Assembly (NCBI GenBank): GCA_026388115.1
Contig: JAPLKK010000015.1
Coordinates: 2,988 to 66,987, forward strand
DNA: 64,000 nt
Origin: Elusimicrobiota bacterium
GTDB taxonomy: Bacteria; Elusimicrobiota; Elusimicrobia; UBA1565; JACRDR01
Direction: 5' to 3'
The stretch's first letter is position 1. The number at the start of each line of letters is the position of its first letter. The notes under the pieces were generated by a model. That model did no database searches. It saw nothing but the letters and a program-made list of their open reading frames with translations, and was not told the origin of the DNA. This document shows positions 2,493-64,000 of the stretch, one piece after another. The position numbers and the translations under genes were made by a program.

Positions 2493-4256
2493 CTACTTGC
2501 CGGATACAAGCGAGGCAACCAGTTCGAGCACAAAACGCGCCCGGAACTTGACCGCCTGAAAGAAAGGGAGGTCGTTGAGCGCCGGGGTGTTGGGGTCGCG
2601 CAGGTGGCGCTCCGCCAGCGCCGCCTTGTGACGGTCCCAGAACGCCTCGAGCCTCGGATTGTACCGCACCCGCGTATAGACGGGCTTCGTCTTGAGCCAA
2701 TCCCAGAAATCCACCATCAGCGCCTGGAAGGCGAATCTCACCAGCCGCTGCGGCCCCAAAAGGCCGAGCTTAGGGACGTAAACCCGTTGGAGGCAGTTCG
2801 GACAGGCGATGCGGAACGAGCCGATGGCGTCGCGGGCGGAGACCGCCAGCCGGACTCCGTCGGACCGTTGGCGGCATAGCGGGCAGACGTACGCGATCGA
2901 ATACAAGTCGGGTCCCAGCTCCTTCGAGGCGGCCACGCGGCCGAAAACGCGGCCTTTCTTCACTTCGGCGGGAAGGATCTTCGTCACGAGCCGCTGGAAG
3001 TCGGCCTCGGGCATCTGCGTCATGTTGAGATAGCGCCCGCTCTCGTGCATGCCCGTCTCGTAGAAGCGCCGCAGATCTCCGATCTTTCCCTGCTCCTTGA
3101 GGTCCTGATAGAGGCGCGTGCCCGGGTACGGGATGATCGCCCCCAGCGAGACGCTGTTGCTGAAATCGAACCGGTGCTTGCGGTAGAAGCTCAAGGTCTC
3201 CTCGGCCGTCTCCCACGTCTCCGCGGGATCGCCGAAGATGAAGTTCCCCTGGATCGTGAGCCCGGCCTTCTGCGTCAGGAGCAATGCCTGCTCCATCTTC
3301 GGCACGAGGAGCCCCTTGCGCATGCTGTGCAGGACTCTCGGGCTCGCGCTTTCGAGCCCGTAGCTGATCCAGTTGCACCCGGCCCCCTTCATCGCGCGCA
3401 GGACCTCTTCGTCGACGACCGGTAGGCGCAGCTGGCAAGACCAGACCAAGTCCAGCGGCTGGACCTTGCCGCAGAACTCCATCAACCGCGCCTTCGTCGT
3501 CGAGAACAGGTCGTCCCACAGGGCGACCTCGTTGATTCCGTAGCGGGACTTCAGGTGCTTGATCTCCGTGATGACGTTGTCGATCGTGCGCCACCGGTAG
3601 GCCGTCGTCAGGCGGAAGCAGAAGGTGCACTTGGCCGCGCACCCCCGGCCTGAGATGACGGGCGCGATGCGGCGCTGCGGATACTTGCTCCAGCTCGTCT
3701 GGTCGAAGGAAGGGTGAAACTCGTTCAGGTAGCGTTCGAACTCGAACGCGTCGTAGTCGGGCCAGGGCAGCGTGTCGAGCTCGCCGACGGAGACCGGAGG
3801 CGCCGTGCGCACCATCCGGCCGTCCTTGAGATAGGCGAGGCCCGGGACCGAGTCCATCCCCTCGCCGGCGGCCAGGGCCAGCAAGAAAGCCGCCATGGGC
3901 AGCTCCGCCTCTCCGAGGATCAGATAATCCGGGCGCAGGGAGTCGAGCGCGAACTCGGCGTCCGCGGAAGCGATCGCTCCGCCGAGAACGATGACGGACT
4001 TCGGGCTTTCGCGGCGTACCGTCTCGATGATGGCCCTGTAGTTGGCGTACTGCGGGAACAGCCCCCCGGTGGCGACGACGTCGAAGTTCCCGGCCCTCAG
4101 CGTCTCGGAGAGCTTCCCCGGGCCATAATGGTTCAGGTTAAGGCCGGCGACATCGAATCCCTGCTGCTTCAGGTAGGACGAAAGGTACATGATGCCCAAG
4201 GAGATCATGTACGGCCCGCTGTAGCCGTAATTGGGCATCACCAGCAGGGTTTTCAT
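2493..4256 (-). CDS. B12-binding-domain radical SAM protein with a C-terminal Cys-rich extension.
   Basis: N-terminal cobalamin-binding-like domain, a radical SAM CxxxCxxC motif (GCAAKCTFC) and a C-terminal CPLC...CPNC motif. Start taken at MKTLLV. Confidence 0.75.
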   Translation of the reverse strand: MKTLLVMPNYGYSGPYMISLGIMYLSSYLKQQGFDVAGLNLNHYGPGKLSETLRAGNFDVVATGGLFPQYANYRAIIETVRRESPKSVIVLGGAIASADAEFALDSLRPDYLILGEAELPMAAFLLALAAGEGMDSVPGLAYLKDGRMVRTAPPVSVGELDTLPWPDYDAFEFERYLNEFHPSFDQTSWSKYPQRRIAPVISGRGCAAKCTFCFRLTTAYRWRTIDNVITEIKHLKSRYGINEVALWDDLFSTTKARLMEFCGKVQPLDLVWSCQLRLPVVDEEVLRAMKGAGCNWISYGLESASPRVLHSMRKGLLVPKMEQALLLTQKAGLTIQGNFIFGDPAETWETAEETLSFYRKHRFDFSNSVSLGAIIPYPGTRLYQDLKEQGKIGDLRRFYETGMHESGRYLNMTQMPEADFQRLVTKILPAEVKKGRVFGRVAASKELGPDLYSIAYVCPLCRQRSDGVRLAVSARDAIGSFRIACPNCLQRVYVPKLGLLGPQRLVRFAFQALMVDFWDWLKTKPVYTRVRYNPRLEAFWDRHKAALAERHLRDPNTPALNDLPFFQAVKFRARFVLELVASLVSGK

Positions 4257-7738: not shown

Positions 7739-9538
7739 CTATTGACTGATCTTCAAGACCGCCAGGAAAGCCTCTTGGGGCACCTCGACGGTGCCGATCA
7801 TCTTCGCCCGCCGCTTGCCCTCCTTCTGCTTCTCCAAGAGCTTACGCTTGCGCGTGATGTCGCCGCCGTAGCACTTGGCGATCACGTCCTTGCGCGCCGC
7901 CGGGATCGTCTCGCGCGCCACGATGCGCCCGTCCACCCGCGCCTGGATCGCCACCTCGAACTGCTGGCGCGGGATGAGCTCCTTGAGCTTCTCGCACAAG
8001 GCCTTGCCCATGCGGTACGCCTTGGACTTGTGGACGACCTGCGAGAGCGCGTCGACGACGTCGGCGTGGATCAGGATCTCGAGCTTGACCAGCTCGGACT
8101 CCTTGTACTCCGACGGGTTGTAGTCGAAGGACGCGTAGCCCTTGGAGATCGACTTCAGCTTATCATAGAAATCCAGCACCATCTCGCCCAAGGGCAGGTC
8201 GTAGCGGATGATCATGCGGTCGGAAGAAAGGTATTCCACCGACTTGTGCGTTCCGCGCCGGTCCTTGAGCAGATTCATCACCGACTCCTGGAAGCCCACC
8301 GGCAGGACGATGGTCACCGCGACGTACGGCTCGCGGATGGATTCGATGTCGCCGTAATGCGGGAACTTGGCCGGATTGTCGAGCCGCTTGTACCCCGGCT
8401 CGCCGCGCTTCTTCACCTCGAAGACGACGTTCGGCGCCGTGACGATCAGGTTCATGTCGAACTCGCGCTCGAGCCGCTCCTTGATGATGTCCATGTGCAA
8501 AAGGCCCAGAAAGCCGAGGCGGAAACCGAAGCCGAGCGCCTGCGACGTCTCCACCTGCCAGACGAACGAGGAGTCTTCGAGGTTGAGCTTCTCCAGCGCG
8601 CCCTTAAGAGCGGGGTAATCGGCCTGATTGATCGGGAAGATGCCGGCGAAGACGACCGGCTTGGCCTCGCGGTAGCCCGGCAGGGGAGCCGACAGCGGAC
8701 GGTCCGCCTCCATCACCGTGTCGCCTACGCGGACCTGGTGGATGTCCTTGATGCCGCAGACGAGGTAGCCCACCTCGCCGGCCGAAAGCTGGCCGGTCGC
8801 GACCTTGGCGGGCGCGAACGTGCCCACCTCCTCGATGGTGAACGGAAAGCCGGTCGAGAACATGCGGATCTTCATCCCCTTCTTGAGCGTCCCGCGCGTG
8901 ACGCGCAGGAAGACGATCACGCCCCGGTACGCGTCGTACTGGGAGTCGAAGATCAGCGCGGCCAGCGGCGCATCCACCTCGCCCCCGGGCGGCGGCACCT
9001 CCCGGATGATCGCCTCGAGCACCTCGCGGGTGCCCCGGCCCTCTTTCGCGCTGACGAGCACCGCGTCCTCGTAGATCTTGAGCACCTCGAGGATCTGCTC
9101 CTCGGTCTTCGCGACGTCCGCGGCCGGAAGGTCGATCTTGTTGATGACAGGGATGACCTTGAGCTTCAGCTGGGCGGCCAGGTCCGCGTTGGCGAGCGTC
9201 TGCGCCTCGACGCCCTGGGTGGCGTCGACGACCAACAGCGCCCCCTCGCAGGCGGCCAGCGCCCGCGACACCTCGTAGGAGAAGTCCACGTGGCCGGGCG
9301 TGTCGATGAGGTTCAGCACGTACTCGTGGCCGTCGACGGCCTTGTAGCGCATGCGCACGGCCTTGGCCTTGATGGTGATGCCCCGCTCGCGCTCGAGCTC
9401 CATCGAGTCCATGACCTGCTCTTTCATGTGCCGCCGCGAGATCGTCCCGGTCGCTTCCAGCAGGCGGTCGGCCAGCGTGGACTTGCCGTGGTCGATATGC
9501 GCAATGATCGAGAAATTGCGGATGCGAGGAGACATCAT
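7739..9538 (-). CDS. lepA: Elongation factor 4 (LepA).
   Basis: GTP-binding motifs (AHIDHGKST, DTPGH, NKID) and a LepA-specific C-terminal domain. Conserved lepA-lepB arrangement. Confidence 0.95.
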   Translation of the reverse strand: MMSPRIRNFSIIAHIDHGKSTLADRLLEATGTISRRHMKEQVMDSMELERERGITIKAKAVRMRYKAVDGHEYVLNLIDTPGHVDFSYEVSRALAACEGALLVVDATQGVEAQTLANADLAAQLKLKVIPVINKIDLPAADVAKTEEQILEVLKIYEDAVLVSAKEGRGTREVLEAIIREVPPPGGEVDAPLAALIFDSQYDAYRGVIVFLRVTRGTLKKGMKIRMFSTGFPFTIEEVGTFAPAKVATGQLSAGEVGYLVCGIKDIHQVRVGDTVMEADRPLSAPLPGYREAKPVVFAGIFPINQADYPALKGALEKLNLEDSSFVWQVETSQALGFGFRLGFLGLLHMDIIKERLEREFDMNLIVTAPNVVFEVKKRGEPGYKRLDNPAKFPHYGDIESIREPYVAVTIVLPVGFQESVMNLLKDRRGTHKSVEYLSSDRMIIRYDLPLGEMVLDFYDKLKSISKGYASFDYNPSEYKESELVKLEILIHADVVDALSQVVHKSKAYRMGKALCEKLKELIPRQQFEVAIQARVDGRIVARETIPAARKDVIAKCYGGDITRKRKLLEKQKEGKRRAKMIGTVEVPQEAFLAVLKISQ

Positions 9539-9544
9539 CAGAGG

Positions 9545-9636
9545 GTGACGGCCATCAACTTATTCAACTTATCGAACCTATTTCTTCAGGAAGACAAACC
9601 ATAGTGAAATAAGTTGAATAAGTTGATGGCTGTCAC
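9545..9636. repeat. AT-rich palindromic intergenic element, copy 1. Arms are 28 bp with a 36-bp loop.
   Basis: Arms GTGACGGCCATCAACTTATTCAACTTAT and ATAAGTTGAATAAGTTGATGGCTGTCAC, with one mismatch. The element fills the ptsI-lepA gap. Confidence 0.8.
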
Positions 9637-9640
9637 CGAT

Positions 9641-11359
9641 CTATAAATCCGTGAGCAGGCGCTGGATCTCGTCGGAGTCCGCGAGCGTCAGCGCGCGGGC
9701 CACGAGCTTGGCGGCGTTCTCGTAGCGCAAGGACATCACGATCTGCTTGACGCGCAGGAACATCCGAGGCGTCACCGACAGAGTGTCCACGCCCAGCCCG
9801 ACGAGCAGGGGCACCGCCTTCGGGTCGGACGTCATCTCGCCGCAGACCGTGACGCGCTTGCCCTTCGACCGGGCCGTTTCCACGATCTGGTGCAGGATGC
9901 GCACCACCGCGGGGTGGAATGGGTCGTAAAGGTGCGCGACGTGCTCGTTGATGCGGTCGACGGCCAGGACGTACTGGATCAGGTCGTTGGTGCCGATGGA
10001 GATGAAGTCCGCCTCGCCCAGCAGGTGGTCGAGAATGAGCCCGGCCGACGGGATCTCCACCATGATGCCCAGCTCCACCTTCTTGGCCGCCTCGTTCCCC
10101 TCGGCCAGCAGCTCCTGCTGGACCGCGACGAAGATGCGGCGCGCCGAACGCAGCTCGGCCATCGAGGAGATCATCGGCAGGAGCACCCGCACCTTGCCGT
10201 ACTGCGCCGTGCGCAGGATCGCGCGCAGCTGCGTCTTGAGCAGATCGGAGTGGCGCAGGAACAGCCGGATGCCGCGCAGGCCCATGAAGGGGTTCGTCTC
10301 GTTCTTCGGCCCGTCGATGCCGAGCTGGGCGAGCCGGTCGCCGCCGATGTCGGCGGTGCGGATGACGACGGGCAAAGGCGCCAGCGATTTGACGGCGTGC
10401 AGGTAGGCCCGGTACTGCTCCTCCTCGCTCGGCGGCTCCAGCCGGTTCATGAAGAGATACTCGCTGCGGAACAGCCCGATGCCGTCCACCCGGAGCCCCA
10501 TGACCGTCTTGATGTCCTCGGCCGTGTCGAGGTTGACGGCCATCTCGAAACGCCGGCCGTCGAGCGTCACCGCGGGCTGCCCGCGCAGCGCCTCCAGGGC
10601 CTTCTCCTCCTGCTGCGTCTTGAGCTGGGCCTTCTGGTATTTGGCGATCGCCTCCGGGCTCGGGTTGATGATCAGCATCCCGTGCTCGCCGTCGAGGATG
10701 ATGAAATCGTCCATCTTGACGCGGTGGCTCGCGTCCGAGAGCCCCACGACGGCGGGGATCTGCATCCCCTGCGCCAGGATCGCCGTGTGGCTCGTGCGGC
10801 CCCCCAGGTCCGTCGCGAAGCCGAGGATCTTCGACTCCTTGAGGTTCACCGTGTCGGACGGCAGGAGGTTGCGGGCGATGAGGATGCAGGGATTGTCCAC
10901 CTCGGCCAGGCTGCGCTTTTCCTGCTTCAGCAGGTGCGACAGGAGCCGCTTGCCGACGTCGAAGAGGTCGTGGCGCCGCTCGCGGAAGAACTCGTCCTCG
11001 ATCTTCTCGAAGGTCTCGTTCACCGCGTCGAGCGCCTCGGAGAGGGCGAACTCGGCGTTCACCGACTCATCGAGGATGCGCCGCGGCACGTCTTTGGTGA
11101 TGAGCGGGTCCGAGAGGATGAGGCGGTGGGTGTCGATGAGCTTGGCGTGCTCCTTGCCCAGCGTCTTGAGCACCTTGGACTCGGCCTGGTCCAGGTCGCG
11201 GTTGGTGGCGTCGAGCGCCTGCTTGAAGCGCTTGACCTCGATGCGGATGCGCTCCTTCGCGATCTCGACGCGGTTGACCACGATCTCCTCGTCTTCGAGG
11301 ATGTAGGCCTTGCCCATCGCGATCCCTGGGCTCGCCGGCACCCCCTTGATGACGATCAT
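9641..11359 (-). CDS. ptsI: Phosphoenolpyruvate-protein phosphotransferase (PTS Enzyme I).
   Basis: Full-length EI homologue with N-terminal HPr-binding, phosphohistidine and PEP-utilising domains. Confidence 0.92.
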   Translation of the reverse strand: MIVIKGVPASPGIAMGKAYILEDEEIVVNRVEIAKERIRIEVKRFKQALDATNRDLDQAESKVLKTLGKEHAKLIDTHRLILSDPLITKDVPRRILDESVNAEFALSEALDAVNETFEKIEDEFFRERRHDLFDVGKRLLSHLLKQEKRSLAEVDNPCILIARNLLPSDTVNLKESKILGFATDLGGRTSHTAILAQGMQIPAVVGLSDASHRVKMDDFIILDGEHGMLIINPSPEAIAKYQKAQLKTQQEEKALEALRGQPAVTLDGRRFEMAVNLDTAEDIKTVMGLRVDGIGLFRSEYLFMNRLEPPSEEEQYRAYLHAVKSLAPLPVVIRTADIGGDRLAQLGIDGPKNETNPFMGLRGIRLFLRHSDLLKTQLRAILRTAQYGKVRVLLPMISSMAELRSARRIFVAVQQELLAEGNEAAKKVELGIMVEIPSAGLILDHLLGEADFISIGTNDLIQYVLAVDRINEHVAHLYDPFHPAVVRILHQIVETARSKGKRVTVCGEMTSDPKAVPLLVGLGVDTLSVTPRMFLRVKQIVMSLRYENAAKLVARALTLADSDEIQRLLTDL

Positions 11360-11399
11360 GGATGGTCCATTATGGCATTTCGACCGCGGTCAGCGTTCG

Positions 11400-11732
11400 T
11401 CAGAACGGCCGGAAAGGCTCTTCTCCCTTGCACACCGGGCATTCCTCGGTGGCATCCTTGCGCCAATGCTCGAAGAGCCGCTCGAGCGCGCCCATGGCCT
11501 GCTTGGCGTCCGGACCCTCGGTCGTCACGGTCACCTGGCTGCCCGTCGCCGCCTCGAGCGTCAGGAAGCTCAGGATGCTCTTCCCGTTGGCGGTCTTGTC
11601 GGCGCCCTTCGATACCTCGATCCTCGACTTGAAGAGGTTGGCGGTCTGCACGAAGAAGCCGGCCGGCCGCAGGTGCAGCCCCTGGTTCAGCGCCATCGTG
11701 AACGTCTTTTGGATCCGGACCGGACCGCTCAT
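11400..11732 (-). CDS. ptsH: Phosphocarrier protein HPr with a C-terminal Cys-containing extension.
   Basis: MALNQGLHLRPAGFF active-site His and regulatory Ser region (KGADKTANGKSI). A ~22-aa tail carries CPVC. The start overlaps the IID stop. Confidence 0.85.
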   Translation of the reverse strand: MSGPVRIQKTFTMALNQGLHLRPAGFFVQTANLFKSRIEVSKGADKTANGKSILSFLTLEAATGSQVTVTTEGPDAKQAMGALERLFEHWRKDATEECPVCKGEEPFRPF

Positions 11733-12514
11733 GGCCTCACCCACGCCCACGCCAGGCACAAGGCCAGGCCGGCCGCGTACAGGCGCGGCGTCGACCAGCC
11801 CATGGGCCGGATCGCGACGGCCGCCGCCAGCACCGCGACGTTCCACCAGCTCGCGGCGGGGCTCCACGGCGGCACGAGCAGCGCCGCCCCGGCCGCCAAG
11901 GCGGCGAGCGCCAGCCCCGCCCACCGCAGAGCCCGGATCCGCTCGTGCCATTTAAAATTCATGAGCTCCGAGGCCAGGCTCTCGCCGAACGCGTAGCCGA
12001 GCCTCAGCCCGCTCCACCGGATCCACAGCGCCGGCGCGTTATAGGCGGCGAGGTACGCGAGGGTGGCCCAGGCGACCGGATGGCGGCTCCCGGCCGTCCA
12101 CGCCGCGAGCCAAGTGAACAAGCCGAGCGCCGCGCAAAAGGGCCTGAGCGCGCCCCAGAAGAGCGAGTCGCCGACGCCGGCCAGCGCCGCGCCGAAGCCC
12201 GCCTTCAGGCGCTGGATGCGCGCCTGGGCCGCCGGGCGGGCCGGGGCCGGTTCGGCCGCGAGCTCTTCCTCCAGGCGCCCCGTCACGCCCAAGACGAACG
12301 AAGCCATGTACGGCTGGGTGTTGAAATACTGCAGATGCCGCCGCACGCCGTCGGCCTCGCAAGGACCGCCGGAGCGCTCGATGCGCTTGAGCCACGGCTC
12401 CAGCGCGAAGGCGAAGCCGACGTTCTGCATCCCCTCCTCGTTCCAGCAGGACTGCAGCAAGAGGCTCCGGGCGGCGACGCGGGCGCGAAGGCTCATGGGA
12501 GGAAGGCGGGTCAT
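11729..12514 (-). CDS. PTS mannose/sorbose-family IID component.
   Basis: MQNVGFAFALEP and YFNTQPY motifs. The start overlaps the IIC stop (ATGA). Confidence 0.8.
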   Translation of the reverse strand: MTRLPPMSLRARVAARSLLLQSCWNEEGMQNVGFAFALEPWLKRIERSGGPCEADGVRRHLQYFNTQPYMASFVLGVTGRLEEELAAEPAPARPAAQARIQRLKAGFGAALAGVGDSLFWGALRPFCAALGLFTWLAAWTAGSRHPVAWATLAYLAAYNAPALWIRWSGLRLGYAFGESLASELMNFKWHERIRALRWAGLALAALAAGAALLVPPWSPAASWWNVAVLAAAVAIRPMGWSTPRLYAAGLALCLAWAWVRP

Positions 12515-13131
12515 CCCCTCGGCCTCAGCGAATAGAGCAGCGCGCCGAGGCCCAGCCACGGCGCGTTCATGAAAGCGGGCTCCAGGCCGCGCCTCGCCGG
12601 CGCGGGGACGGCGTCCCAGCCCCACCCCAACAGCGGCGCCATCCAGGCCGCGGCGTAGAGATACGCGGCGGTCGCGGCCGCGTGCAGCCCGAGCCCGGAG
12701 AGCAGCCGCCGCCCCAGCCGCGCCGGCCGGCCCAGTTCCACCTCGTCCATCGCGCGTCGAGCGATGCGGACGCACGCCGTGCGCACCGCCCGCTCCACCG
12801 CCCGGTACGCCCAGGCCAGAAAAAGCGCGGCCGGGAAAGCCGCCGAGACGGGAACGGCCGAGGGGCCCGCGCAAAGCAGGACGAGAGACGCGACGGCGAC
12901 CGCGCCGTTGATGGGCAACGAGGCGCCGACGGGCAGGACGTCCACGCAGAAAAGCTCGACGAGCGCCCCGCCGGCCAGGCCGAGCCACGGCACGCCGCCG
13001 AGCGCGCCCAGCATCGGCCCAAGGATCATCGGACGCGACAGCATCCATTGGCCCACGTGGACGGCGTCGAGCTCAATGATCGCCGTGAAGGCGCACAAAC
13101 CCGGAAGCGCTCCGAGATACCAGCCGCTCAT
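12511..13131 (-). CDS. PTS mannose/sorbose-family IIC component.
   Basis: Polytopic membrane protein with IIC-Man-like glycine-rich segments. Overlaps IIB and IID. Confidence 0.75.
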   Translation of the reverse strand: MSGWYLGALPGLCAFTAIIELDAVHVGQWMLSRPMILGPMLGALGGVPWLGLAGGALVELFCVDVLPVGASLPINGAVAVASLVLLCAGPSAVPVSAAFPAALFLAWAYRAVERAVRTACVRIARRAMDEVELGRPARLGRRLLSGLGLHAAATAAYLYAAAWMAPLLGWGWDAVPAPARRGLEPAFMNAPWLGLGALLYSLRPRG

Positions 13132-13607
13132 GCGGCGATCAGGCTCGCCAAGTCGAGGCGCCGGTCGGATGGCACGGCGCGGCCCTCGAGCACGATGCCG
13201 CGCTGGACCAGCTCCCGGAGATCCTCGCGGTCCTCGTCCGACAGGTAGATGACGCGGCCGAGCTGGATGCGTCCCGCCGAGTAATGGAGGCCCCCGACGT
13301 TGAGGCTGGGAACCTTGAGGCCCGCCTTGACCAGCTCTCGCGCCTCGCGCGGGCTCGGCACCAGCACCAGCGTCCGCTTGCCCGACAGCACGGCGGAGGC
13401 GAGCAAGGCCGCGGCCTCGGCCGGGGCCAGCACATGGAGCTCGACCGTGTCCGGCAGGGCCATGCGCATGAGCGTCTTCTGAGTCTCGTCGGCCGCCGCC
13501 TGCGCCGACGCGACGACGACGGCCTCCGCGTTCAAGTGGGGGACCCACGCCTCGACCACCTGGCCGTGGATGAGGCGGTCGTCGATGCGCAGCAGTTCCA
13601 CGCTCAT
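13128..13607 (-). CDS. PTS mannose/sorbose-family IIB component.
   Basis: RIDDRLIHGQV phosphohistidine motif. Confidence 0.88.
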   Translation of the reverse strand: MSVELLRIDDRLIHGQVVEAWVPHLNAEAVVVASAQAAADETQKTLMRMALPDTVELHVLAPAEAAALLASAVLSGKRTLVLVPSPREARELVKAGLKVPSLNVGGLHYSAGRIQLGRVIYLSDEDREDLRELVQRGIVLEGRAVPSDRRLDLASLIAA

Positions 13608-14020
13608 CGGTGCGCCTTCGACAGCAGCGCGGCCTTCATGTCGCGGATCGAGCGCTGCCCGTCGGCCAGCATCTTCGCGGCCAGCTCTTCCAGGCCGAGG
13701 GTCCTGCGGTTTCCGAAACCGGAGATCAGCATATAGAGGTTCAGGCCGCTCAGGACGCGGACGCCCGGCATGTCCTTGGCGGCCAGCAGCACGACGTTGG
13801 AGGGCGTGCCGCCGGGGATGTCCGTCGCGACGATCACGCCGCCGGCCCCGTCGAGCTCGCGCAGAGCCTCTTCGACCCGGCGGCGCACCTCGTCGACCGA
13901 GAGCCGCGCGGAGATCGAGACGACGGCGACGCCCTCGCCCTGGCGGCCGACGATGCTCTCGGCCGCTTCCACCAGGTAGGCGCCGAACTCGCCGTGGGTG
14001 ACGATGACGAAGTTGACCAT
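13604..14020 (-). CDS. PTS mannose-family IIA component.
   Basis: IVTHGEFG phosphorylation-site motif. The domain is ~138 aa. Confidence 0.85.
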   Translation of the reverse strand: MVNFVIVTHGEFGAYLVEAAESIVGRQGEGVAVVSISARLSVDEVRRRVEEALRELDGAGGVIVATDIPGGTPSNVVLLAAKDMPGVRVLSGLNLYMLISGFGNRRTLGLEELAAKMLADGQRSIRDMKAALLSKAHR

Positions 14021-14023
14021 GGC

Positions 14024-14884
14024 TCAGCGGTGGATGTCGCGATGGAACTCGCGGACCGAGTACCCTTCCTTTTGCAGCTCGCGCGCGAGGCTGTGCGTCA
14101 CGAAAACGCTGCGGTGGTGTCCGCCGGTACAGCCGACCGCGATCGTGAGATACGACTTGCCCTCATGGATGTAGTGCGGCAGCACGGAGCGCAGCATCCC
14201 GGAGAAATCGCGCAAGAACTTCGTGGCCGACGGCTGACGGAGCAGGTACGTCTGCACGGCGCGGGCGAGTCCGTTCTTCCTCTTCAGGCTTGGGACGTAG
14301 TTCGGATTCGGCATGAAGCGCACGTCCACCACGAGATCGGCGTCGAGGGGCAGGCCGAACTTATAGCCGAAGGAGACGACCGAGAGGTTCATCTCCTTGG
14401 TGCCCTGCAGCTCCAGCGCCATCGACAGGGTCTCCTTGAGCTCGCCCAGCGTCATCGAGCTGGTATCGATGACCTTGTCGGCGATGGCCTTGATGTCGGT
14501 CAGGATCTTGCGCTCCTCGCGCACGGCCTCGACGATGTTGGTCCCCAAGGGATGGCGGTGCCTCGTCTCGGAGAAGCGCTGGACGATCGCGCGGTCGCTG
14601 GAGTCGAGGAAGAGGATGCGGTACTCGAAGCCCTTGGCGCGGACGACGGCCAGCGCGGCCTCGAGGTCCTTGAGGAACTTGCCTTCGCGGATGTCGATGC
14701 CCAGCGCGACGCGCGACATGCCGGGGCGCTCCGCGAGCAGCTCGGCGAAATGGTCGAGCAGCGCGATCGGGAGGTTGTCGACGCAGGTGAAGCCAAAATC
14801 CTCGAAGCACTTCAGCGCCTGGCTTTTCCCGGCCCCTGAGATGCCGGTGATGATGAAGAGCTTTCTTCCCCGTTGGTTCTTCAT
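14024..14884 (-). CDS. rapZ: RNase adapter protein RapZ (YvcJ/YhbJ P-loop NTPase).
   Basis: Walker A motif TGISGAGKS and a C-terminal GGHHRSV motif. Sits between hprK and the PTS genes. Confidence 0.9.
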   Translation of the reverse strand: MKNQRGRKLFIITGISGAGKSQALKCFEDFGFTCVDNLPIALLDHFAELLAERPGMSRVALGIDIREGKFLKDLEAALAVVRAKGFEYRILFLDSSDRAIVQRFSETRHRHPLGTNIVEAVREERKILTDIKAIADKVIDTSSMTLGELKETLSMALELQGTKEMNLSVVSFGYKFGLPLDADLVVDVRFMPNPNYVPSLKRKNGLARAVQTYLLRQPSATKFLRDFSGMLRSVLPHYIHEGKSYLTIAVGCTGGHHRSVFVTHSLARELQKEGYSVREFHRDIHR

Positions 14885-14889
14885 TTACT

Positions 14890-14977
14890 TAGGTGTCAGA
14901 CATCAACTTATAGAACCTATTCTTCAAAGGATAATACCCTATTTGAATAAGTTCTATAAGTTGATGTCTGACACCTA
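14890..14977. repeat. AT-rich palindromic intergenic element, copy 2. Arms are 27 bp with a 34-bp loop.
   Basis: Perfect arms TAGGTGTCAGACATCAACTTATAGAAC and GTTCTATAAGTTGATGTCTGACACCTA. Core and loop motifs are shared with copy 1. The element ends 6 nt upstream of the rapZ start codon. Confidence 0.8.
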
Positions 14978-14993
14978 GATTATACTTCGGGCG

Positions 14994-15935
14994 CTACTTT
15001 GCGGGCTTCTTCATGCGCTCGATGAGGCTCTGGTTGAAGGTGAGCGCGCTGACGTAGCCCTGGCCCCGCAGGCGCTGGTTGAGCGCCGCCACCTCGATGA
15101 GGACCGCGAGGTTGCGGCCGGGGCTCACGGGGATGTGCACCGTCGGGATCTCCACGTCCAAAATCTTCGAGGTCTTCAGGTCCATCCCGACGCGCTCGTA
15201 CTGGGTGGTCGGCTCCCATTGCTGCAGGTAGACCACCAGCTCGATGCGCGAGGCGTTCAGGATGGAGCCGATGCCGAAGAGCAGCTTGACATCGATGATG
15301 CCGAGGCCGCGGACCTCCATGTAATGCTTGAGCGGCTCCGGGCACGAACCCAGCAGGATCCCCCCGCGGCGCTTCTGTATCTCGACGACATCGTCGGAGA
15401 CGAGGATGTGGCCCCGCTTGAGGAGCTCGAGGGCGCACTCCGACTTTCCGATGCCGGAATCCCCCTCGATGAGCACGCCGAGCCCGTAGACATCGCACAA
15501 GACGCCGTGGACGCGCGTGACGGGCGCCAGGCGGGTCTCCAAGTAGGCGGAGAGCTCGCCGACGAAGGCGGCCGTGTCGAGGCTCGTGCGCAGCAGCGGC
15601 ACGTTGTACTTGCGGCAGGCCTGGGCCAGCGCGGCCGGCGTGGCGAGGTTGCGCGTGATGATGAGGCAGGGAAGGTCGGGGTGCCCGAGCATCCGGCTGA
15701 GCGCCGCGACCAGCGTCTTCTGCGGCGCCTTGGCGCAGTAGGCCTGCTCGCCGCGCCCGATGATCTGGATGCGCTCGGCGCGGAAATGCTCCAGGTGGCC
15801 CGCCATCGACAGCCCGGGCCGGTTCACGTCGGCGGTGGCGACCTTGCGGCCCGTGGCCTTCTCGCCGGTCACCAGCTCGAGCTTGAGCCGGGTACGCTGT
15901 TCCTTGAGAAGCTCGGCGACGGTGAGGGGCGTCAC
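14994..15935 (-). CDS. hprK: HPr kinase/phosphorylase.
   Basis: Walker A GDSGIGKSE and the HprK C-terminal domain. The GTG start overlaps the hpf stop (GTGA). Confidence 0.9.
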   Translation of the reverse strand: MTPLTVAELLKEQRTRLKLELVTGEKATGRKVATADVNRPGLSMAGHLEHFRAERIQIIGRGEQAYCAKAPQKTLVAALSRMLGHPDLPCLIITRNLATPAALAQACRKYNVPLLRTSLDTAAFVGELSAYLETRLAPVTRVHGVLCDVYGLGVLIEGDSGIGKSECALELLKRGHILVSDDVVEIQKRRGGILLGSCPEPLKHYMEVRGLGIIDVKLLFGIGSILNASRIELVVYLQQWEPTTQYERVGMDLKTSKILDVEIPTVHIPVSPGRNLAVLIEVAALNQRLRGQGYVSALTFNQSLIERMKKPAK

Positions 15936-16459
15936 TTTCCGTTCTTCTTGACGGGCTGCAGCACGGCGTAGCTGTCGTCTTCGCGGCGATACACCACCGA
16001 GATCTGGCCGGTGGACTGATCGACGAAGAGGCGGAAATTGTGGCCCAGCTCGTCCATCTCGTCGGCCGCCTGATCGCACGTCATCTCGCGCAGGACCTGC
16101 TTGACGACCATGAAGCGCGCCTGCCCCGTTTCTTCGGGCGCGGCGGCCGGGAACTCCTCGGTCCGTTCCTTGTGGTGGCCGCGCACGCGCTCCTTGTACT
16201 TCTTGAGCTGCGCGTCGATCTTATCGGAGACGAGGTCGATCGCGGAGTGCAGGTCCACGCCCTTGGCGACGCAGCGGAATGTCTGGTGGCCGGCATGGAT
16301 CATGATCTCGGCTTGATGGGCTTTTCTTTCCACGGAAAGCACGACCTGAGCCCAGACGATGTGGTTGAAATACTTCTGCGCTTTCGCGATCTTCTCTTCC
16401 ACATAGCCGCGAATCGGCTGGGTTAAGCGGATATGCCGGGCGGTGATATGGATCTGCAT
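15932..16459 (-). CDS. hpf: Ribosome hibernation promoting factor (long form).
   Basis: S30AE/HPF N-terminal domain plus a C-terminal dimerisation extension. Confidence 0.88.
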   Translation of the reverse strand: MQIHITARHIRLTQPIRGYVEEKIAKAQKYFNHIVWAQVVLSVERKAHQAEIMIHAGHQTFRCVAKGVDLHSAIDLVSDKIDAQLKKYKERVRGHHKERTEEFPAAAPEETGQARFMVVKQVLREMTCDQAADEMDELGHNFRLFVDQSTGQISVVYRREDDSYAVLQPVKKNGK

Positions 16460-16743
16460 TTAACGGGGCCTCCAGCCAGGGCGGATCAAGCGGTATTAAA
16501 TCTAAGCCGCGGCTGATTAAAACACATTGGGCCGGGGGTGTCAATGGCGGGGCGCAAAGCGTCGCAATAAGTTGACTCAACCGCTAAAATTACGTACGAT
16601 TCTAACGGCTGGAATCTCTCGATTTTTCTTCTTTCGTTCTGCGCTCATCAGTAAGATTTCAGCGAGTCACACGGTTATTAAAAGAGATTTAATTTAATAG
16701 TGTTTTTGGGTCCCTCAAAGTTATAAACACCTGTGGAAAACCT
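16460..16743. other. Putative oriC: an AT-rich unwinding region plus DnaA-box-like 9-mers upstream of dnaA.
   Basis: AT-rich stretch at 16620-16730. TGTGGAAAA at 16732 and TGTGAATAA at 16743 are each 8/9 matches to TGTGGATAA. Gene strand bias flips here. Confidence 0.6.
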
Positions 16744-18096
16744 GTGAATAACTGGTCCCCTGCCGATCTGTGGCAGCAAGTGATTGAGCGTCTTCGACCG
16801 GAGATCGGCAGCGACAACGTCGAACTCTGGCTCCGGCCAGTCGAGGCCCAGGCCTGCGACAACCACCTCCTTCGCGTCAAGGTGCCCAACAGCTTCTTTT
16901 TTGACCACATCCAGCGCAACTACCAGCGGCAGATCGAGGGCGCGCTGAAGAGCCTGGCGGGCGAGGAGATCGCCCTTGAATACCAGGTGGCGCGCGACTT
17001 GAAGTCCGTGCTCCCAAAGAACGACCCCGTTGAAACGCCGAGCGCGCAAGCGGAGTTCTCGCTGAGCGAACTGAACCCGCGCTACACCTTCTCAAGCTTC
17101 GTCGTCGGCACTTCGAACCGGTTCGCGCACGCGACCGCCGAGGCGATCAGCAAGGCCCCGGGCAAGCAGTACAACCCGTTCTTCTTGTACGGCGGCTCCG
17201 GGCTCGGCAAGACCCATCTCCTGTTCGCCATCGGCAACGCGATCCGCAAGGAGTTTCCGCGAGCCCGCGTGCTCTATACGACCTCTGAGCAGTTCGTCAA
17301 CGAGTTCATCGACTCGTTGCGCTACGACAAGCCCGACGCCTTCCGTTCCAGGTTCCGCAGTCTCGACGTCCTCCTTATGGACGACATCCAATTCATGGGC
17401 GAGAAAGGCCGCTCGGTCGAGGAATTCTTCCATACCTTCAACGTCCTCTCCGAGGCGAGAAAGCAGATCGTCTTGTCCTCCGATCGTCCGCCGAAAGAGC
17501 TGGTCGCCTTCGACCCAAGGATGATCTCGCGCTTCGAATGGGGCGTGGTCGTGGACATCAAGCCCCCGGATCTGGAGACGCGCATCGCCATCTTGCGCAA
17601 GAAGGCCGAGCTCGAACAGATCTCCATCCCCAACGACGTGATCGTCCGCATCGCCGAAGTGATCAAGACCAATATCCGCGAATTAGAGGGCTGCCTGACG
17701 AAGATGGGCGCCTTCGCCGCGTTGACCGGCAGCCACCTCACGGTCGACATCGCCAACGAAGTGCTGAAGGACTCCATCTCCAGCGACATCGATTCCCCCA
17801 TCCGCGTCGAGACCATCCAGAAGGTGGTGGCGGAAAAATACCACCTCGACCTCAAGGCGATGAAGGGCCACTCGCGCACGAAGGAGGTCGCGATGCCGCG
17901 GCAGGTCGCGATGTACTTGTGCTGCACCCTCAGCGGCGCCTCGACGACCGAGATCGGGCGGGCCTTCGGGGGCAAGGATCACACGACGGTGATCCACGCG
18001 AGGAAGAAGATACAGGCGATGATTGAGAAGGACACGTTCACCTCGGCGGCAATGAACGAGTTGATCGAACAGATACGCGTGAGGGAAAATTCATGA
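16744..18096 (+). CDS. dnaA: Chromosomal replication initiator DnaA.
   Basis: AAA+ Walker A GGSGLGKTHL and the DnaA signature C-terminal DNA-binding domain. Confidence 0.95.
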   Translation: MNNWSPADLWQQVIERLRPEIGSDNVELWLRPVEAQACDNHLLRVKVPNSFFFDHIQRNYQRQIEGALKSLAGEEIALEYQVARDLKSVLPKNDPVETPSAQAEFSLSELNPRYTFSSFVVGTSNRFAHATAEAISKAPGKQYNPFFLYGGSGLGKTHLLFAIGNAIRKEFPRARVLYTTSEQFVNEFIDSLRYDKPDAFRSRFRSLDVLLMDDIQFMGEKGRSVEEFFHTFNVLSEARKQIVLSSDRPPKELVAFDPRMISRFEWGVVVDIKPPDLETRIAILRKKAELEQISIPNDVIVRIAEVIKTNIRELEGCLTKMGAFAALTGSHLTVDIANEVLKDSISSDIDSPIRVETIQKVVAEKYHLDLKAMKGHSRTKEVAMPRQVAMYLCCTLSGASTTEIGRAFGGKDHTTVIHARKKIQAMIEKDTFTSAAMNELIEQIRVRENS

Positions 18097-18288
18097 CCGG
18101 CGACGTCCCGGTGGAGAGGCTGTGGAAAAGCTGTCAAGAACTCCGGTCTTTACGGGATCGTCGCGGCGGCCTGGGGATACTGTGAATACCTCTGGCGAGT
18201 TTTCAACAGAAAAGAAGGGCGCCGCTTCGATGATGAATCCACTTTATCCACAAAATGAGGCCGCCTATGAAGGCGAGGACTATGTTCT
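18097..18288. other. dnaA-dnaN intergenic DnaA-box cluster.
   Basis: Perfect TTATCCACA at 18244-18252, plus TGTGGAAAA at 18121 and TGTGAATAC at 18181. Confidence 0.6.
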
Positions 18289-19398
18289 ATGAAAATACAT
18301 TGTAGTAAGGCTGATCTGTCGAGAGGCGTACAGACCATCCAGTCCGCGCTCTCTTCCCGGACGACGCTTCCGATCCTCCTGAACTTCCTTGTCGAGACCG
18401 AGGACTCGAAACTCAAGCTGGTCTCGACGGATCTTGAGATGGGAGTCAAGCATTACATCCCCGCCGAGATTGAAACAGGGGGAAGCATCACGATCCCCGC
18501 TAAGAAGTTCTCGGACATCATCCATACCCTGCAGGACGAGCACGATATCGACTTGACGGTCGAGCCGGGCGGGAAGGTGCAGCTCAAGAGCGGCCGTTCC
18601 CGCTTTTCGATCATCGGGGCGCCAAAATCGGAATATCCGGTCCTGCCGGAGTTCAACCAGACCGGCTCCTTCTCGATCAAGGCGACGACCCTTGAGGAGA
18701 TGGTCCGAAAGACCCTGATCGCGGCCTCTTCCGATGAGAGCCGTCACGCCCTCAACGGCTGCTTCTGGGTGGGGCACGAAGGGAATCTTGAGATGGTGGC
18801 GACCGACGGGCGGCGGCTGGCGATCATCAAGCGCGCTTGCCTTCCAAAAGACAAGGAGTTCCGGGTGATCGTGCCGACGAAGATCCTTACCGAACTCTTG
18901 AGGCTGCTTTCCCAGGAGAAGGCGGGGGAGGACGATCAGGTCCAGGCCGGCGTGACCGATAATCAGATCGCCTTTCAGTATAAGACGACGACGCTGTTGT
19001 CTCGCCTTGTTGAGGGGAGCTTCCCGAACTACGAGCAGGTGATCCCGGTCAAAAAGGACCTTCAAGTCCAGCTGGATACCAAAGCCTTCGTTCAGATCAC
19101 AAAGCGCGCCTCTCTCTGCGCTTCCGACCGCGGGGGCTCGGTCAAGTTCACGCTTCGTCCGGGCGCCCTCCATGTGTACGCTTCAAGCCCAAATCTTGAG
19201 TTCGACGACGAGCTTGCGGTGGATTATAAAGGCGGAGAGTTCTCGGTTGCCTTCAACCCGCAGTTCATCCTCGACGGGCTGAAAGCGTTCGACTGCGATA
19301 AGGTGATGCTGAGCCTGACGGCGCCGGTGAACCCGGCTCTGTTCGAACCGCTAGGGGAGACCGATTATAAGTACGTCGTGATGCCGATGCGGGTTTAG
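18289..19398 (+). CDS. dnaN: DNA polymerase III beta sliding clamp.
   Basis: Three-domain beta-clamp homologue located immediately after dnaA. Confidence 0.93.
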   Translation: MKIHCSKADLSRGVQTIQSALSSRTTLPILLNFLVETEDSKLKLVSTDLEMGVKHYIPAEIETGGSITIPAKKFSDIIHTLQDEHDIDLTVEPGGKVQLKSGRSRFSIIGAPKSEYPVLPEFNQTGSFSIKATTLEEMVRKTLIAASSDESRHALNGCFWVGHEGNLEMVATDGRRLAIIKRACLPKDKEFRVIVPTKILTELLRLLSQEKAGEDDQVQAGVTDNQIAFQYKTTTLLSRLVEGSFPNYEQVIPVKKDLQVQLDTKAFVQITKRASLCASDRGGSVKFTLRPGALHVYASSPNLEFDDELAVDYKGGEFSVAFNPQFILDGLKAFDCDKVMLSLTAPVNPALFEPLGETDYKYVVMPMRV

Positions 19399-19403
19399 CG
19401 ACG

Positions 19404-23634
<4,231 letters not shown>

Positions 23635-27462: not shown

Positions 27463-27821
27463 CGGAGGCCCCGGCCGGCCGTTGGAGCGCGCTTGCGGGA
27501 TCCCGTTCCGGGCGCCGATTCCCGAACAGGTCCGTGCGGTCAACGGCCGGCCTAGGGGTGGCGTCCAAGCAGAGCCGGCGAGCCGGCCCGCAAGGCGTCC
27601 CGCGCTCCGGCGCAAGGCCGGCGAGAGGACAAGCCGGGGGGCTGTCCATGCCGAGCGCTTCCGCGGCCTGCGGGAACCTTGCGAGCGCTGCTATCGCTAA
27701 ACGGCTCCGCTTCATCGCCATCGATATTAGGGTTGTTCGGGAGGGGAGTAAATTCAAGGGTTTAAATGTCAGAAAGGGTCAGAAAGTGTCTAAATATAGT
27801 CAGATATGGCGTTTTTATGGC

Positions 27822-28448
27822 TTAAACTACCCACACGTGGCGAGGTTCGGACAAGCGTTTTGGGTTCGTTTTGCCATTTTCGTCAGGAGTGACCGCCGTC
27901 TTGACCGGTGCCGCCGCCGGAACCGGGTTGACCACTTCATTGATCATCAAACTCCCGAGCACGACGAACGCGCAGTATGTCAACTGTTCCCCGAGGTCGA
28001 GCGGAGAGAGGGTCGACTGCATCAGGTAGCGGAACAGGACGAAGGCCGAGACTCCGCAAGCCATGGCGAGGGTCCGCGTCCGGCTTCCATAGATTGCCGT
28101 CGCCAGCGGCGTCAGCGCCAACAGCAGCCAGCAGGGGGTCCAGACTGCGCCGAGCAGCCAGACGATGGTGCAGTTGCAGCCAAGATTGACAGCCATCCTC
28201 AGGTTGACGAAAGCGGACTGGTGCGTCGTCGAGTGCAGTATCGAAGGACTCAAAAGGTTGAATAGCGCGCTGAAAATCAGCAACCCGATGCTCACACGGC
28301 CCGCGATGCCGACCGGGCTACCAAGAGCGACTCCCAGGCAGACGGTGAGGACAGCGAACGGCATCGCGTAGCGATTGACGACCATCGCACGGTTTGGAAC
28401 CGCGGATTCGCCTTCGATATTTTTTCGTGTGTTTTCCATCGGAACCAC
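27822..28448 (-). CDS. Hypothetical polytopic membrane protein.
   Basis: About 5 predicted TM segments and lower GC than the surroundings. Confidence 0.4.
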   Translation of the reverse strand: MVPMENTRKNIEGESAVPNRAMVVNRYAMPFAVLTVCLGVALGSPVGIAGRVSIGLLIFSALFNLLSPSILHSTTHQSAFVNLRMAVNLGCNCTIVWLLGAVWTPCWLLLALTPLATAIYGSRTRTLAMACGVSAFVLFRYLMQSTLSPLDLGEQLTYCAFVVLGSLMINEVVNPVPAAAPVKTAVTPDENGKTNPKRLSEPRHVWVV

Positions 28449-32238: not shown

Positions 32239-32255
32239 CTTCGTCCTCGACCCCA

Positions 32256-32318
32256 AGAGTATAAGCGACAACGGTAAAGTCAATTGTAAAACTAGTTGTT
32301 AAGAAGATTGTAACTAAG
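32256..32318. repeat. TTGT-rich imperfect direct repeat, left flank of the fimbrial cluster.
   Basis: AAGAGTATAAGCGACAACGGTAAAGTCAATTGTAAAACTAGTTGTTAAGAAGATTGTAACTAAG. Similar to 38037-38100. Confidence 0.5.
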
Positions 32319-32320
32319 CC

Positions 32321-38001: not shown

Positions 38002-38036
38002 CTCGGCGCTCCTCCTCGGCTGAGGCAACTTCCATG

Positions 38037-38100
38037 AAGAGTATAGGCCACAATTGTGAACTAGATTGTAAGTCTAAATGTCAAATCAAGTGTTAAATAG
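38037..38100. repeat. TTGT-rich imperfect direct repeat and candidate regulatory region, right flank of the fimbrial cluster.
   Basis: AAGAGTATAGGCCACAATTGTGAACTAGATTGTAAGTCTAAATGTCAAATCAAGTGTTAAATAG. Sits in the divergent promoter region shared with rtcB. Confidence 0.5.
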
Positions 38101-38192
38101 ATGGACCGAACACCCCGCGCCGCCGCAGGCGCCCGATATATTGAGGAAAAGGGAACTTTTCAGGCGCTCGTTCGTATACTAAAGTAGGAGCC

Positions 38193-42414: not shown

Positions 42415-42463
42415 ACCCTCACCCCGGCCCTCTCCCGCCGTAGGCGGGAGAGGGAGAAGGACT
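42415..42463. repeat. GC-rich REP-like hairpin repeat, copy A. It acts as a bidirectional terminator-like hairpin between convergent genes.
   Basis: GAACCCTCACCCCGG CCCTCTCCCGCC gta GGCGGGAGAGGG AGAAGG. The 12-bp perfect stem spans 42428-42454. Confidence 0.7.
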
Positions 42464-43382
42464 ACTGCCAGGAATCGGGGATGTTGAGCTTGCGGCGAAG
42501 GTCCGTGCGCACCTGCTCCATGCACTGGGCGACGGGAGCGGAGTCGCTCGGCCCCGCCCGATATAGTTCGGTGAAGCGGCTCCAGCCCTGGCGCGGCATG
42601 CCTTTCTCGGCGTGGTCGAAATACAAGGACAAGGCCGCGCTCAGATACTCGCCGGTGGTCTGCGTGGCGCGCGGATCGAGCGCCGCGAGCCTGCCCTCGA
42701 TGTCCGCGATGTGGCTGTCGAACCAGCCGGCGTAGCGCTGGGAGGCGGGCTCGAGGGCGCCGTTCTTGAAGGCGTAGATCGAGCTGCGATAGGCGAAGCG
42801 CGCCATCGTGTGGAATCCGCCGCACTCGACGTCGAAAAGCGAGCCGAGGGGAAGCGAGCGCGTCACGACCTCGGGCTGGCCGTCGCCGTCGAGGTCCTGC
42901 AGCCGCCCTTCCGGCAGGGGCGTCGATTCCGGCGACGCCTTTCCGGCGGAGAACCGCACCAGCCGCAGGGAGCTCGTTCCCAGCGCCGAGATCGAGTAGG
43001 CCAGCGTCGGCTTGCCGTCGCCGTAGAGCGCCGGCATCTTCCCTCCGTCGTGCACGTGCTCCAGCGCGATGCGGTGGCTCGAGCTGAGCTCCAGGTAGCA
43101 GAGCTGCGCCGCGCGCCCCTTGCCCAGCCAGACGCGGAGGCGGTCATGGTCGCCGGAGGGGTCTTCGAAGACATAGACGCCGTACCAGGAGCCGCCGCCG
43201 GCCGGGACGAGGAGCTTGCGCTTGACCGACCAGCCTTGCGAGACCACCTTCTCGGCCTCTGTCGCCATCGCGTCTTTCGCGGTGTTCGTGGCGGCGCGGG
43301 CGGGGAAAGGCGACGCGAGGCACGCGAGCGCGGCCCAGGCGAGGACGCTCCGCCTCACGGCCTCACCGCGAAGCGCTTCCAC
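42462..43382 (-). CDS. Hypothetical secreted protein.
   Basis: Signal peptide. No recognisable domain. Confidence 0.4.
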   Translation of the reverse strand: MEALRGEAVRRSVLAWAALACLASPFPARAATNTAKDAMATEAEKVVSQGWSVKRKLLVPAGGGSWYGVYVFEDPSGDHDRLRVWLGKGRAAQLCYLELSSSHRIALEHVHDGGKMPALYGDGKPTLAYSISALGTSSLRLVRFSAGKASPESTPLPEGRLQDLDGDGQPEVVTRSLPLGSLFDVECGGFHTMARFAYRSSIYAFKNGALEPASQRYAGWFDSHIADIEGRLAALDPRATQTTGEYLSAALSLYFDHAEKGMPRQGWSRFTELYRAGPSDSAPVAQCMEQVRTDLRRKLNIPDSWQ

Positions 43383-44269: not shown

Positions 44270-44315
44270 TGCGTTTCTATAAGGTGCGTGCCTGGCTTCA
44301 GCCCGGCACGCTACC
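44270..44315 (-). promoter_or_regulatory. Conserved hairpin-containing 5' leader, copy 1 (with a -10-like TATACT just upstream).
   Basis: The reverse complement reads GGTAGCGTGCCGGGCTGAAGCCAGGCACGCACCTTATAGAAACGCA immediately before the ATG. It matches 42 of 46 nt of the copy at 50323-50368. Confidence 0.6.
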
Positions 44316-50033: not shown

Positions 50034-50054
50034 TTTTGTGCCCTGGAGCGATAA

Positions 50055-50072
50055 AGTACAACCGATTGTACT
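50055..50072. promoter_or_regulatory. Palindrome AGTACAACCGATTGTACT upstream of parA (candidate operator).
   Basis: 7-bp inverted arms with a 4-bp spacer, 22 nt upstream of the parA start in an AT-rich ~330-bp intergenic region. Confidence 0.35.
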
Positions 50073-63994: not shown

Positions 63995-64000
63995 GGCGAC

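Follow-up and report, generated by a model that had tools for sequence, protein, structure and literature searches.

Two long, AT-rich palindromes interrupt a run of tightly packed housekeeping genes in the genome of an uncultured, high-GC Elusimicrobiota bacterium, and the locus raises the question of whether they serve the genes between which they lie or are inserts that persist on their own account. The palindromes, here termed element 1 and element 2, occupy the ptsI|lepA and hprK|rapZ junctions of a single sugar-signaling (PTS) operon within a stretch of 64,000 nucleotides (contig JAPLKK010000015.1 of assembly GCA_026388115.1, positions 2,988 to 66,987 of the forward strand) that is referred to as the window. 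The observations described below indicate that elements 1 and 2 probably are lineage-restricted, low-copy, non-autonomous palindromic repeats that vary between strains and resemble transposable elements of the miniature inverted-repeat type (MITEs) and REPINs, the latter being built from repetitive extragenic palindromic (REP) sequences. An initial annotation of the same DNA instead had favored a function at the RNA level.

Two paralogous palindromes in one operon

Elements 1 and 2 are the top two inverted repeats of the entire 64-kb window. Element 1 (9544..9637, minus strand) is a near-perfect palindrome of 94 nucleotides (nt) and ~39% GC at the ptsI|lepA junction, for which an inverted-repeat search returned 29-nt arms that are 97% complementary and enclose a 36-nt loop. 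On the plus strand the left arm (9544..9572) reads GGTGACGGCC-ATCAACTTAT-TCAACTTAT, made of 9-bp units, and the right arm (9609..9637) reads ATAAGTTGA-ATAAGTTGAT-GGCTGTCACC. Element 2 (14890..14977, minus strand) is a near-perfect palindrome of 35% GC at the hprK|rapZ junction which spans 88 nt with an outer TA/TA pair, or 84 nt when measured from GGTG to CACC. The same search placed its plus-strand arms at 14890..14922 and 14945..14977, each of 33 nt and 97% complementary, around a 22-nt loop.

The two elements are shown to be paralogous copies. The core CATCAACTTAT occurs four times in the window, exclusively in the four arms, against 0.10 occurrences expected by chance, and local alignment of the element 1 and element 2 spacers gave a score of 70 compared to 15.6 ± 2.4 for shuffled sequences. 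Covariance-model scores were 94.3 bits for element 1 and 104.3 bits for element 2. The arms are composed of the 9-bp units TCAACTTAT, TCAACTTAT and CGAACCTAT, the ends of the elements read GGTG(T/A)C(A/G)G(A/C)C, and neither element contains an open reading frame. The asymmetric centers have GAAGAA(A)TAGGTTC in common and the two elements therefore are oriented alike relative to the operon; the orientation of element 1 is fixed by GAAGAAATAGGTTCG, which its 36-nt center (9573..9608) shares with the center of element 2. The initial annotation thus was correct in placing two homologous AT-rich palindromes at these junctions. Its boundaries, drawn as stems of 27-28 bp around a loop of ~35 nt, need minor correction to the arm and loop lengths given above, and the GC content of 69% that it assigned to the genome was measured as 66% for the window, compared to 35-39% for the elements.

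Each element can form a long hairpin from either strand, with RNA energies of -50 to -58 kcal/mol and z-scores of -7.8 to -12.4. Both transcripts fold stably, at -52 kcal/mol (z = -7.8) for element 1 and -58.2 kcal/mol (z = -12.4) for element 2; the corresponding values for single-stranded DNA are -28.5 and -32.4 kcal/mol. As chimeric reads can generate palindromes, and the window derives from a metagenome-assembled genome, filler produced during assembly or binning was considered. However, a separate Logan assembly (SRR25046533, L001) aligns to window positions 9353-20453 (11.1 kb) with only 3 mismatches, all of which lie outside the elements, and an unrelated JGI metagenome contains a related element. 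Because the independent assembly has both elements unchanged, an assembly artefact is excluded, with only a negligible residual chance.

The elements lie within a tightly packed minus-strand array (~5.4 to 16.5 kb of the window) that was delineated by Pfam matches and the gene call on an identical contig, and which has the order hpf, hprK, rapZ, EIIA-Man, EIIB, EIIC, EIID, HPr, ptsI, lepA, lepB and nfeD. The operon most likely is transcribed as a single unit. Element 1 separates ptsI (9641..11359, minus strand), whose product is identical to NCBI MCX5787068.1, from the downstream gene lepA (7739..9538, minus strand), and element 2 separates hprK (14994..15935, minus strand; Pfam and gene call on L001) from the downstream gene rapZ (14024..14884, minus strand). 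The gene identities proposed initially were confirmed by Pfam.

Intergenic gaps in the window typically are ≤40 nt. The only large gaps within the operon are those at ptsI|lepA (102 nt) and hprK|rapZ (109 nt), and both are almost filled by their palindromes. Element 1 begins 3 nt past the ptsI stop codon, directly after it save for ATC and without a flanking repeat, and finishes 5 nt ahead of the lepA ATG; the lepA start is ATGATG, and the start in the conspecific contig L065 aligns with the second ATG. Element 2 begins 16 nt past the hprK stop codon and finishes 5 nt ahead of the rapZ ATG, or 7 nt when the outer TA pair is discounted. The initial descriptions of elements that exactly fill their gaps and stand at a fixed place before the start codons thus hold nearly to the letter, but both features follow from element-free junctions that are only 11 nt long, as described below, since an insertion anywhere in an 11-nt spacer must have the stop codon on one side and the start codon on the other only a few nucleotides away. 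The accompanying argument that the elements take the position of a Shine-Dalgarno (SD) sequence has little force: an SD-like motif at a usable distance precedes only ~3 of 43 window genes, and element-free relatives likewise have no SD-like motif at either junction. As a separate observation, the near absence of SD-like motifs before start codons suggests SD-independent initiation in this Elusimicrobiota lineage.

Filled and empty junctions in relatives

Contigs L063 and L065 derive from the same species as the window, with 96-99% nucleotide identity in the flanking genes. The hprK|rapZ junction of L063 reads TAG-TCGCCGCGTAA-ATG, an 11-nt spacer without an element (RapZ 98%; flanks 96.8-98.7% nucleotide identity), and the ptsI|lepA junction of L065 reads TAA-CTACTGACCCG-ATG, also an 11-nt spacer without an element (PtsI 99%; flanks 96.4-99.5% nucleotide identity). 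As conspecific contigs have intact 11-nt spacers at both sites, elements 1 and 2 are, on this comparison, strain-level presence/absence polymorphisms within one species whose gain or loss was very recent. In relatives with 79-85% protein identity the two junctions range from -4 to 16 nt. At hprK|rapZ the 83% and 82% relatives have 4-nt overlaps (L068 and L069) and the 79% relative (L002) has a 6-nt gap, and at ptsI|lepA the gaps are 1 nt in L067 (85%) and 16 nt in L002 (83%). The tight junction, judged from these alignments, is the ancestral and commonest state. The existence of element-free strains (96-99%) and relatives (79-85%) further indicates that the flanking genes function without the elements. 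The RapZ and PtsI homologues belong to metagenome-assembled genomes named Elusimicrobiota or Elusimicrobia.

Related palindromes were found at the same junctions in two neighboring lineages. In L064 (92%) the hprK|rapZ junction harbors a 66-nt palindrome, GGTGTCAGACGTTAACTTATGGAACTTTTGCG-T-CGCAAAAGTTTCATAAGTTAACATCTGACACC, which finishes 5 nt before the ATG and is clearly related to element 2 (score 39 compared to 14.5 ± 2.1 for shuffles; 73 bits by covariance model). In L066 (87%) ptsI and lepA are 110 nt apart, and the initial part of this gap forms a hairpin, GTGAAGTCATCGAACCT...AGGTTCGATAACTTCAC (3089-3160), that scored 28.6 bits (E ~1e-4) in a covariance model constructed from the three clear members and is a probable diverged member of the family. 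One further 92% relative has a 37-nt gap at hprK|rapZ. In the 87% relative represented by L003, L004 and L005, the hprK|rapZ junction is a 119-nt gap with the palindrome GCTTTTGGTACCGG...CCGGTACCAAAAGC, which was set aside as a family member: the similarity is not significant and the covariance model does not match it. The family is limited to a narrow clade as far as can be seen. Palindromes unrelated to the family were noted in the same operon of relatives, at hprK|rapZ in L003 (87%; 3405-3468) and at ptsH|ptsI in L002 (79-83%; 15508-15647) and L066 (87%; ~1265-1290), and these operon junctions seem to be generally permissive to hairpin inserts, which appear to have been acquired repeatedly.

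The related elements at hprK|rapZ in L064 and at ptsI|lepA in L066 also could denote ancient residents. On this account both junctions were occupied in the common ancestor with the 87-92% relatives, precise deletions later emptied them, and gene conversion has kept elements 1 and 2 alike. Long palindromes are deletion hotspots. In addition, a 5-nt direct repeat by element 2 (TACTT, or AAGTA on the coding strand, at 14886..14890 and 14983..14987, the second copy lying 5 nt outside the palindrome) could mediate slippage deletion. The repeat is a candidate target duplication or a candidate substrate for deletion, and has no counterpart at element 1, L064 or L066. However, two independent precise deletions would be required within a lineage that is ~3% diverged, and element 1 is far nearer to its paralogue element 2 than to the supposed orthologue in L066. 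The flanks immediately adjoining element 2 and the L064 element differ completely, which favors independent events. Old vertical inheritance thus would need repeated precise loss together with homogenization of elements 1 and 2, and is a doubtful account of the locus.

Strand symmetry of the stems

When the three members were aligned, 97.5% of stem cells were paired and both sides had changed in 6 of 27 pairs. This level of covariation was reached by none of 500 shuffles, and slid controls fell to 26-43% paired. The covariation noted initially therefore is real, but it is the pattern of a symmetric DNA palindrome and not of a selected mRNA fold. The stem changes include A-U/U-A swaps, and pairing is retained on both strands. 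Non-canonical pairs occupy four positions. A sense-strand G.U is found at two of them (element 2 columns 26/69 and L064 columns 22/73), and the remaining two (element 1 columns 7/88 and L064 columns 10/85) show A.C or C.A when read in the sense direction, which corresponds to G.U in the antisense direction. As pairing holds on both strands and the wobbles are split 2:2, nothing in the pattern is specific to mRNA. Compensatory changes across the hairpin are common in REPINs, which are mobile palindromes (PMC3116915). Caution is warranted more generally, as a functional RNA cannot be deduced from compensatory changes in the stems when the copies compared are those of a DNA palindrome.

This symmetry bears on the proposal that the hairpins are a selected RNA-level device which splits or tunes the polycistronic mRNA through RNase III processing, segment stability or gating of lepA and rapZ. 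The sense-strand hairpins are very stable, their stems are maintained by compensatory changes, both copies are oriented alike relative to transcription, and the 92% and 87% relatives again have hairpin-bearing spacers at these two functional boundaries. Precedents exist in Correia elements, which are cleaved by RNase III, and in ERIC elements, which alter mRNA decay (PMC10969869; PMC2649163). Nevertheless, both elements are missing from conspecific strains with 96-99% identity and from all of the 79-85% relatives examined, the covariation holds just as well when the antisense strand is considered, with no strand bias among the wobbles, and the hprK|rapZ palindrome of the 87% relative is unrelated in sequence. 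Thus, the RNA-level function that had been favored initially is an unlikely reason for the existence of the elements, even if it deserves to be kept in mind.

More specific RNA-level and transcriptional roles fared no better. No U-tract follows the stem at either element on either strand, the sense-strand sequences after the stems being CTCTGATG and TAAGTAAATG, and a consensus scan detected no terminator-like or sigma-70-type promoter site in the elements. An intrinsic terminator thereby is rejected at both junctions, and with it the terminator or antiterminator suggested initially; a sigma-70-type promoter carried by the element likewise was rejected for want of a consensus site. Rfam 15 returned nothing at gathering thresholds. 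The only matches were hairpins of microRNA precursors at 24-41 bits, compared to cut-offs of 67-130, and these sub-threshold matches are generic long-hairpin artefacts. A conserved riboregulator was dropped from consideration as conspecific strains and more distant relatives do not have the elements.

Effects on the transcript nevertheless may ensue. If transcription passes through the elements, each would form a duplex of 27-33 bp in the mRNA, which by analogy with Correia elements and from general knowledge of RNase III is a likely substrate for this enzyme and a barrier to exonucleases. Such a duplex could partly uncouple hpf-hprK, rapZ-PTS-ptsI and lepA-lepB as a by-product and not as the reason for the elements. 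RNase III cleavage of the transcribed hairpin would be a plausible side effect; Correia stems are RNase III substrates (PMC2649163; PMC10969869).

Kinship and spread of the elements

The interpretation that best accommodates these observations is that elements 1 and 2 are strain-variable, MITE- or REPIN-like palindromic repeats, a reading that is considered probable and to which the related copies in the lineages of L064 and L066 also speak. REPINs are REP doublets that form hairpins, are mobilized by REP-associated tyrosine transposases (RAYTs) and are found in Pseudomonas and enterobacteria. The elements described here resemble them as hairpin-forming extragenic palindromes of ~70-100 nt with compensatory changes, without target-site duplication, and with element-free alleles of the kind that excision leaves (PMC3116915). 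They differ in that the arms consist of AT-rich 9-bp units, whereas REPs are GC-rich stem-loops with a conserved tetranucleotide tag; the arms contain neither a sub-hairpin nor a GTAG/CGTC tag. Moreover, two copies are seen here compared to tens to hundreds, no RAYT is encoded in the window, and there is no sequence similarity. Thus, although the missing duplication and near-complete self-complementarity recall REPINs and other elements that move as single-stranded hairpins, the arms are not REP-like.

The likeness to prokaryotic MITEs noted initially holds for size, AT-richness, terminal inverted repeats, non-coding and intergenic character, and stem-loop transcripts. MITEs are <500 bp and AT-rich, and their target duplications fade with age (PMC10969869); median values are 7-8 copies per genome and a size of 104 bp (PMC11602168). 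With 88-94 nt and arms of 29-33 nt, elements 1 and 2 are within the usual bounds of <~500-800 bp and inverted repeats of ≥10-15 bp, and insertion polymorphism is evident in the empty L063 and L065 junctions. By contrast, the elements have no consistent target-site duplication of 2-10 bp, no parent insertion sequence was identified for them in the window or in the plasmid collection, and they are nearly all stem, whereas a MITE comprises two short ends around unrelated DNA.

The ends GGTG(T/A)C(A/G)G(A/C)C presumably are not those of Correia elements, also termed NEMIS or CREE, of Neisseria. The latter are inverted-repeat elements of ~100-150 bp that similarly are often co-transcribed with their neighbors and are strain-variable, but they duplicate a TA target, carry promoter-like ends of a specific ~26-bp sequence in addition to an integration host factor (IHF) site, and are present in a genome by the hundreds. 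In the family described here a TA flank is seen at one copy out of four, the scan for sigma-70-type promoters was negative, and the sequence is unrelated. ERIC elements also are imperfect palindromes (~70-127 bp) of transcribed intergenic regions, including those within operons, which have size variants produced by internal deletion or insertion and are present or absent at orthologous sites between close relatives. They belong to another phylum, differ in sequence, have less perfectly complementary arms, and attain 30-700 copies per genome (PMC10969869). An integron attC site also was examined: the RYYYAAC...GTTRRRY boxes match in part (CATCAAC / GTTGATG, by eye) and L064 does not retain them, no extrahelical bases interrupt the near-perfect stems, the flanks are a conserved housekeeping operon, and the window encodes no integrase. 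Overall, the element is filed as a new family of a known kind and not as a member of any named family.

Several observations weigh against mobility as the explanation. Alignment to the empty sites revealed no target-site duplication that is consistent among the copies: none is seen at element 1, L064 or L066, and element 2 alone has a TA/TA pair, which equally possibly is part of the palindrome, or the AAGTA repeat that is offset by 5 nt on one side. Pfam identified no transposase, RAYT or integrase among the ~50 window proteins. Just two copies occur in 64 kb, 5.3 kb apart and both in one operon, and the covariance model found no others in the window or in ~50 kb of the relatives' loci. An exact-core scan of 185,579 species genomes with CATCAACTTATNNAACYTAT produced 51 single-arm matches in unrelated, mostly AT-rich taxa, which are attributable to chance and none of which is palindromic; a two-arm exact-core scan of JGI metagenomes gave six palindromes, all unrelated; exact-core scans of IMG/VR yielded nothing relevant, and blastn against a plasmid collection gave no match. 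These negatives cover the exact core only, as such patterns are too strict for variants like L064, in which GTTAACTTAT stands in place of ATCAACTTAT. Homologues thus are known from L064 and probably L066, no additional exact-core copy was found in the public collections scanned, and a widespread repeat family was rejected as far as the exact core is concerned.

A further difficulty is that the four known members, which come from three organisms, all occupy one or the other of two junctions in one operon. This distribution is not expected from random transposition and needs either site preference or old vertical inheritance, although the recurrence is partly a matter of ascertainment as the relatives were fetched through these genes only. 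Site preference in its strongest form would make the family a site-selective element that homes to the tight stop-start junctions of co-translated genes, at least these two, and is tolerated or recruited since the hairpin loops out of the mRNA and keeps stop and start adjacent. This is a speculative extension to which a low probability is attached. If it were true, the element would be a reversible 'operon splitter' that recurs at hprK|rapZ and ptsI|lepA in different lineages.

The vicinity of the replication origin also was taken into account. The operon adjoins the origin, as canonical DnaA boxes (TTTTCCACA, TTATTCACA, TTATCCACA) occur only around dnaA (16744-18096, plus strand), at 16460-16751 and 18097-18288. 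The boxes lie next to an AT-rich stretch (16566-16755), and this region likely is oriC, which directly adjoins the hpf (15932..16459, minus strand) end of the operon. Elements 2 and 1 lie 2 and 7 kb from dnaA, their arms are 9-bp repeats, and a single AATAAGTTGA 10-mer is present between hpf and dnaA as well. The palindromes conceivably could constitute a DNA-level protein-binding array, made up of parS or IHF sites or of weak DnaA boxes, or else an operator in which 9-bp NNAACYTAT units are inverted. However, there are no canonical DnaA boxes in the elements and no parS-like site with ≤3 mismatches anywhere in the window, the elements are missing in conspecific strains, and the 9-mer sequence is not kept in L064 or L066. 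An IHF site, judged by eye, was rejected as the motif matches only partially and is not conserved in L064. A binding array thus is highly improbable.

Other features of the window were recorded in passing. GyrB (19687-23634, plus strand) is a protein of 1315 amino acids with an intein splicing domain at residues 479-903 between the GyrB and Toprim domains; the GyrB of L002 has 840 amino acids without an intein, which makes the intein a second strain- or lineage-variable selfish element near the origin. A GC-rich hairpin repeat, CCCTCTCCCGCC-GNAG-GCGGGAGAGGG, is present in two copies that are 86% identical and located just past gene ends (42423-42465 and 63958-64000); it resembles a REP or terminator and may be a separate REP-type family. 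A 50-nt sequence that is 92% identical and inverted (44266-44315 and 50323-50372) covers the leader and start in each of two genes that are separated by 6 kb and encode an unknown protein (43355-44269, minus strand) and a CN-hydrolase (50369-51220, plus strand), and could be a common regulatory leader or a duplicated 5′ region. The parB (48322-49200) and parA (49197-50123) genes are in a stretch (48266-50240) of seemingly lower GC content by eye that is bracketed by AT-rich islands with minima of 27-28% GC, the window being devoid of canonical parS at the tolerance given above. AT-rich intergenic islands at 27741-27840, 32246-32345 and 38021-38115 have short reiterated motifs (GTCAGA; ATTGTAA / AGTTGTTAA), may be promoter or regulator-binding regions, and are unmatched by the covariance model of the elements.

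If elements 1 and 2 are mobile palindromic repeats as is considered probable, the palindrome would matter for the propagation or persistence of the element itself at the DNA level. It may act as a hairpin in single-stranded DNA or as paired ends for a transposase that is provided in trans. The lack of a target-site duplication tilts the balance toward an IS200/IS605- or RAYT-type route, or toward recombination. Selection for mobility might restore the symmetry of the arms, as might template switching within the palindrome. A self-folding insert also would draw its flanks together, leaving ~8-20 nt between the upstream stop and the downstream start codon, and the elements may survive in coupled junctions because self-folding keeps the two close.

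In the literature searched, no description of small palindromic repeats in Elusimicrobiota was encountered. The elements provide a clean natural example, with filled and empty alleles in the same species inside a housekeeping operon, and if their recurrence at two junctions reflects targeting, the insertion specificity would be unusual. Here a hairpin of ~90 nt and -50 kcal/mol sits 5 nt before a start codon in a genome that barely uses SD sequences. The locus thus is a natural experiment in which SD-independent initiation and translational coupling are confronted with structure.

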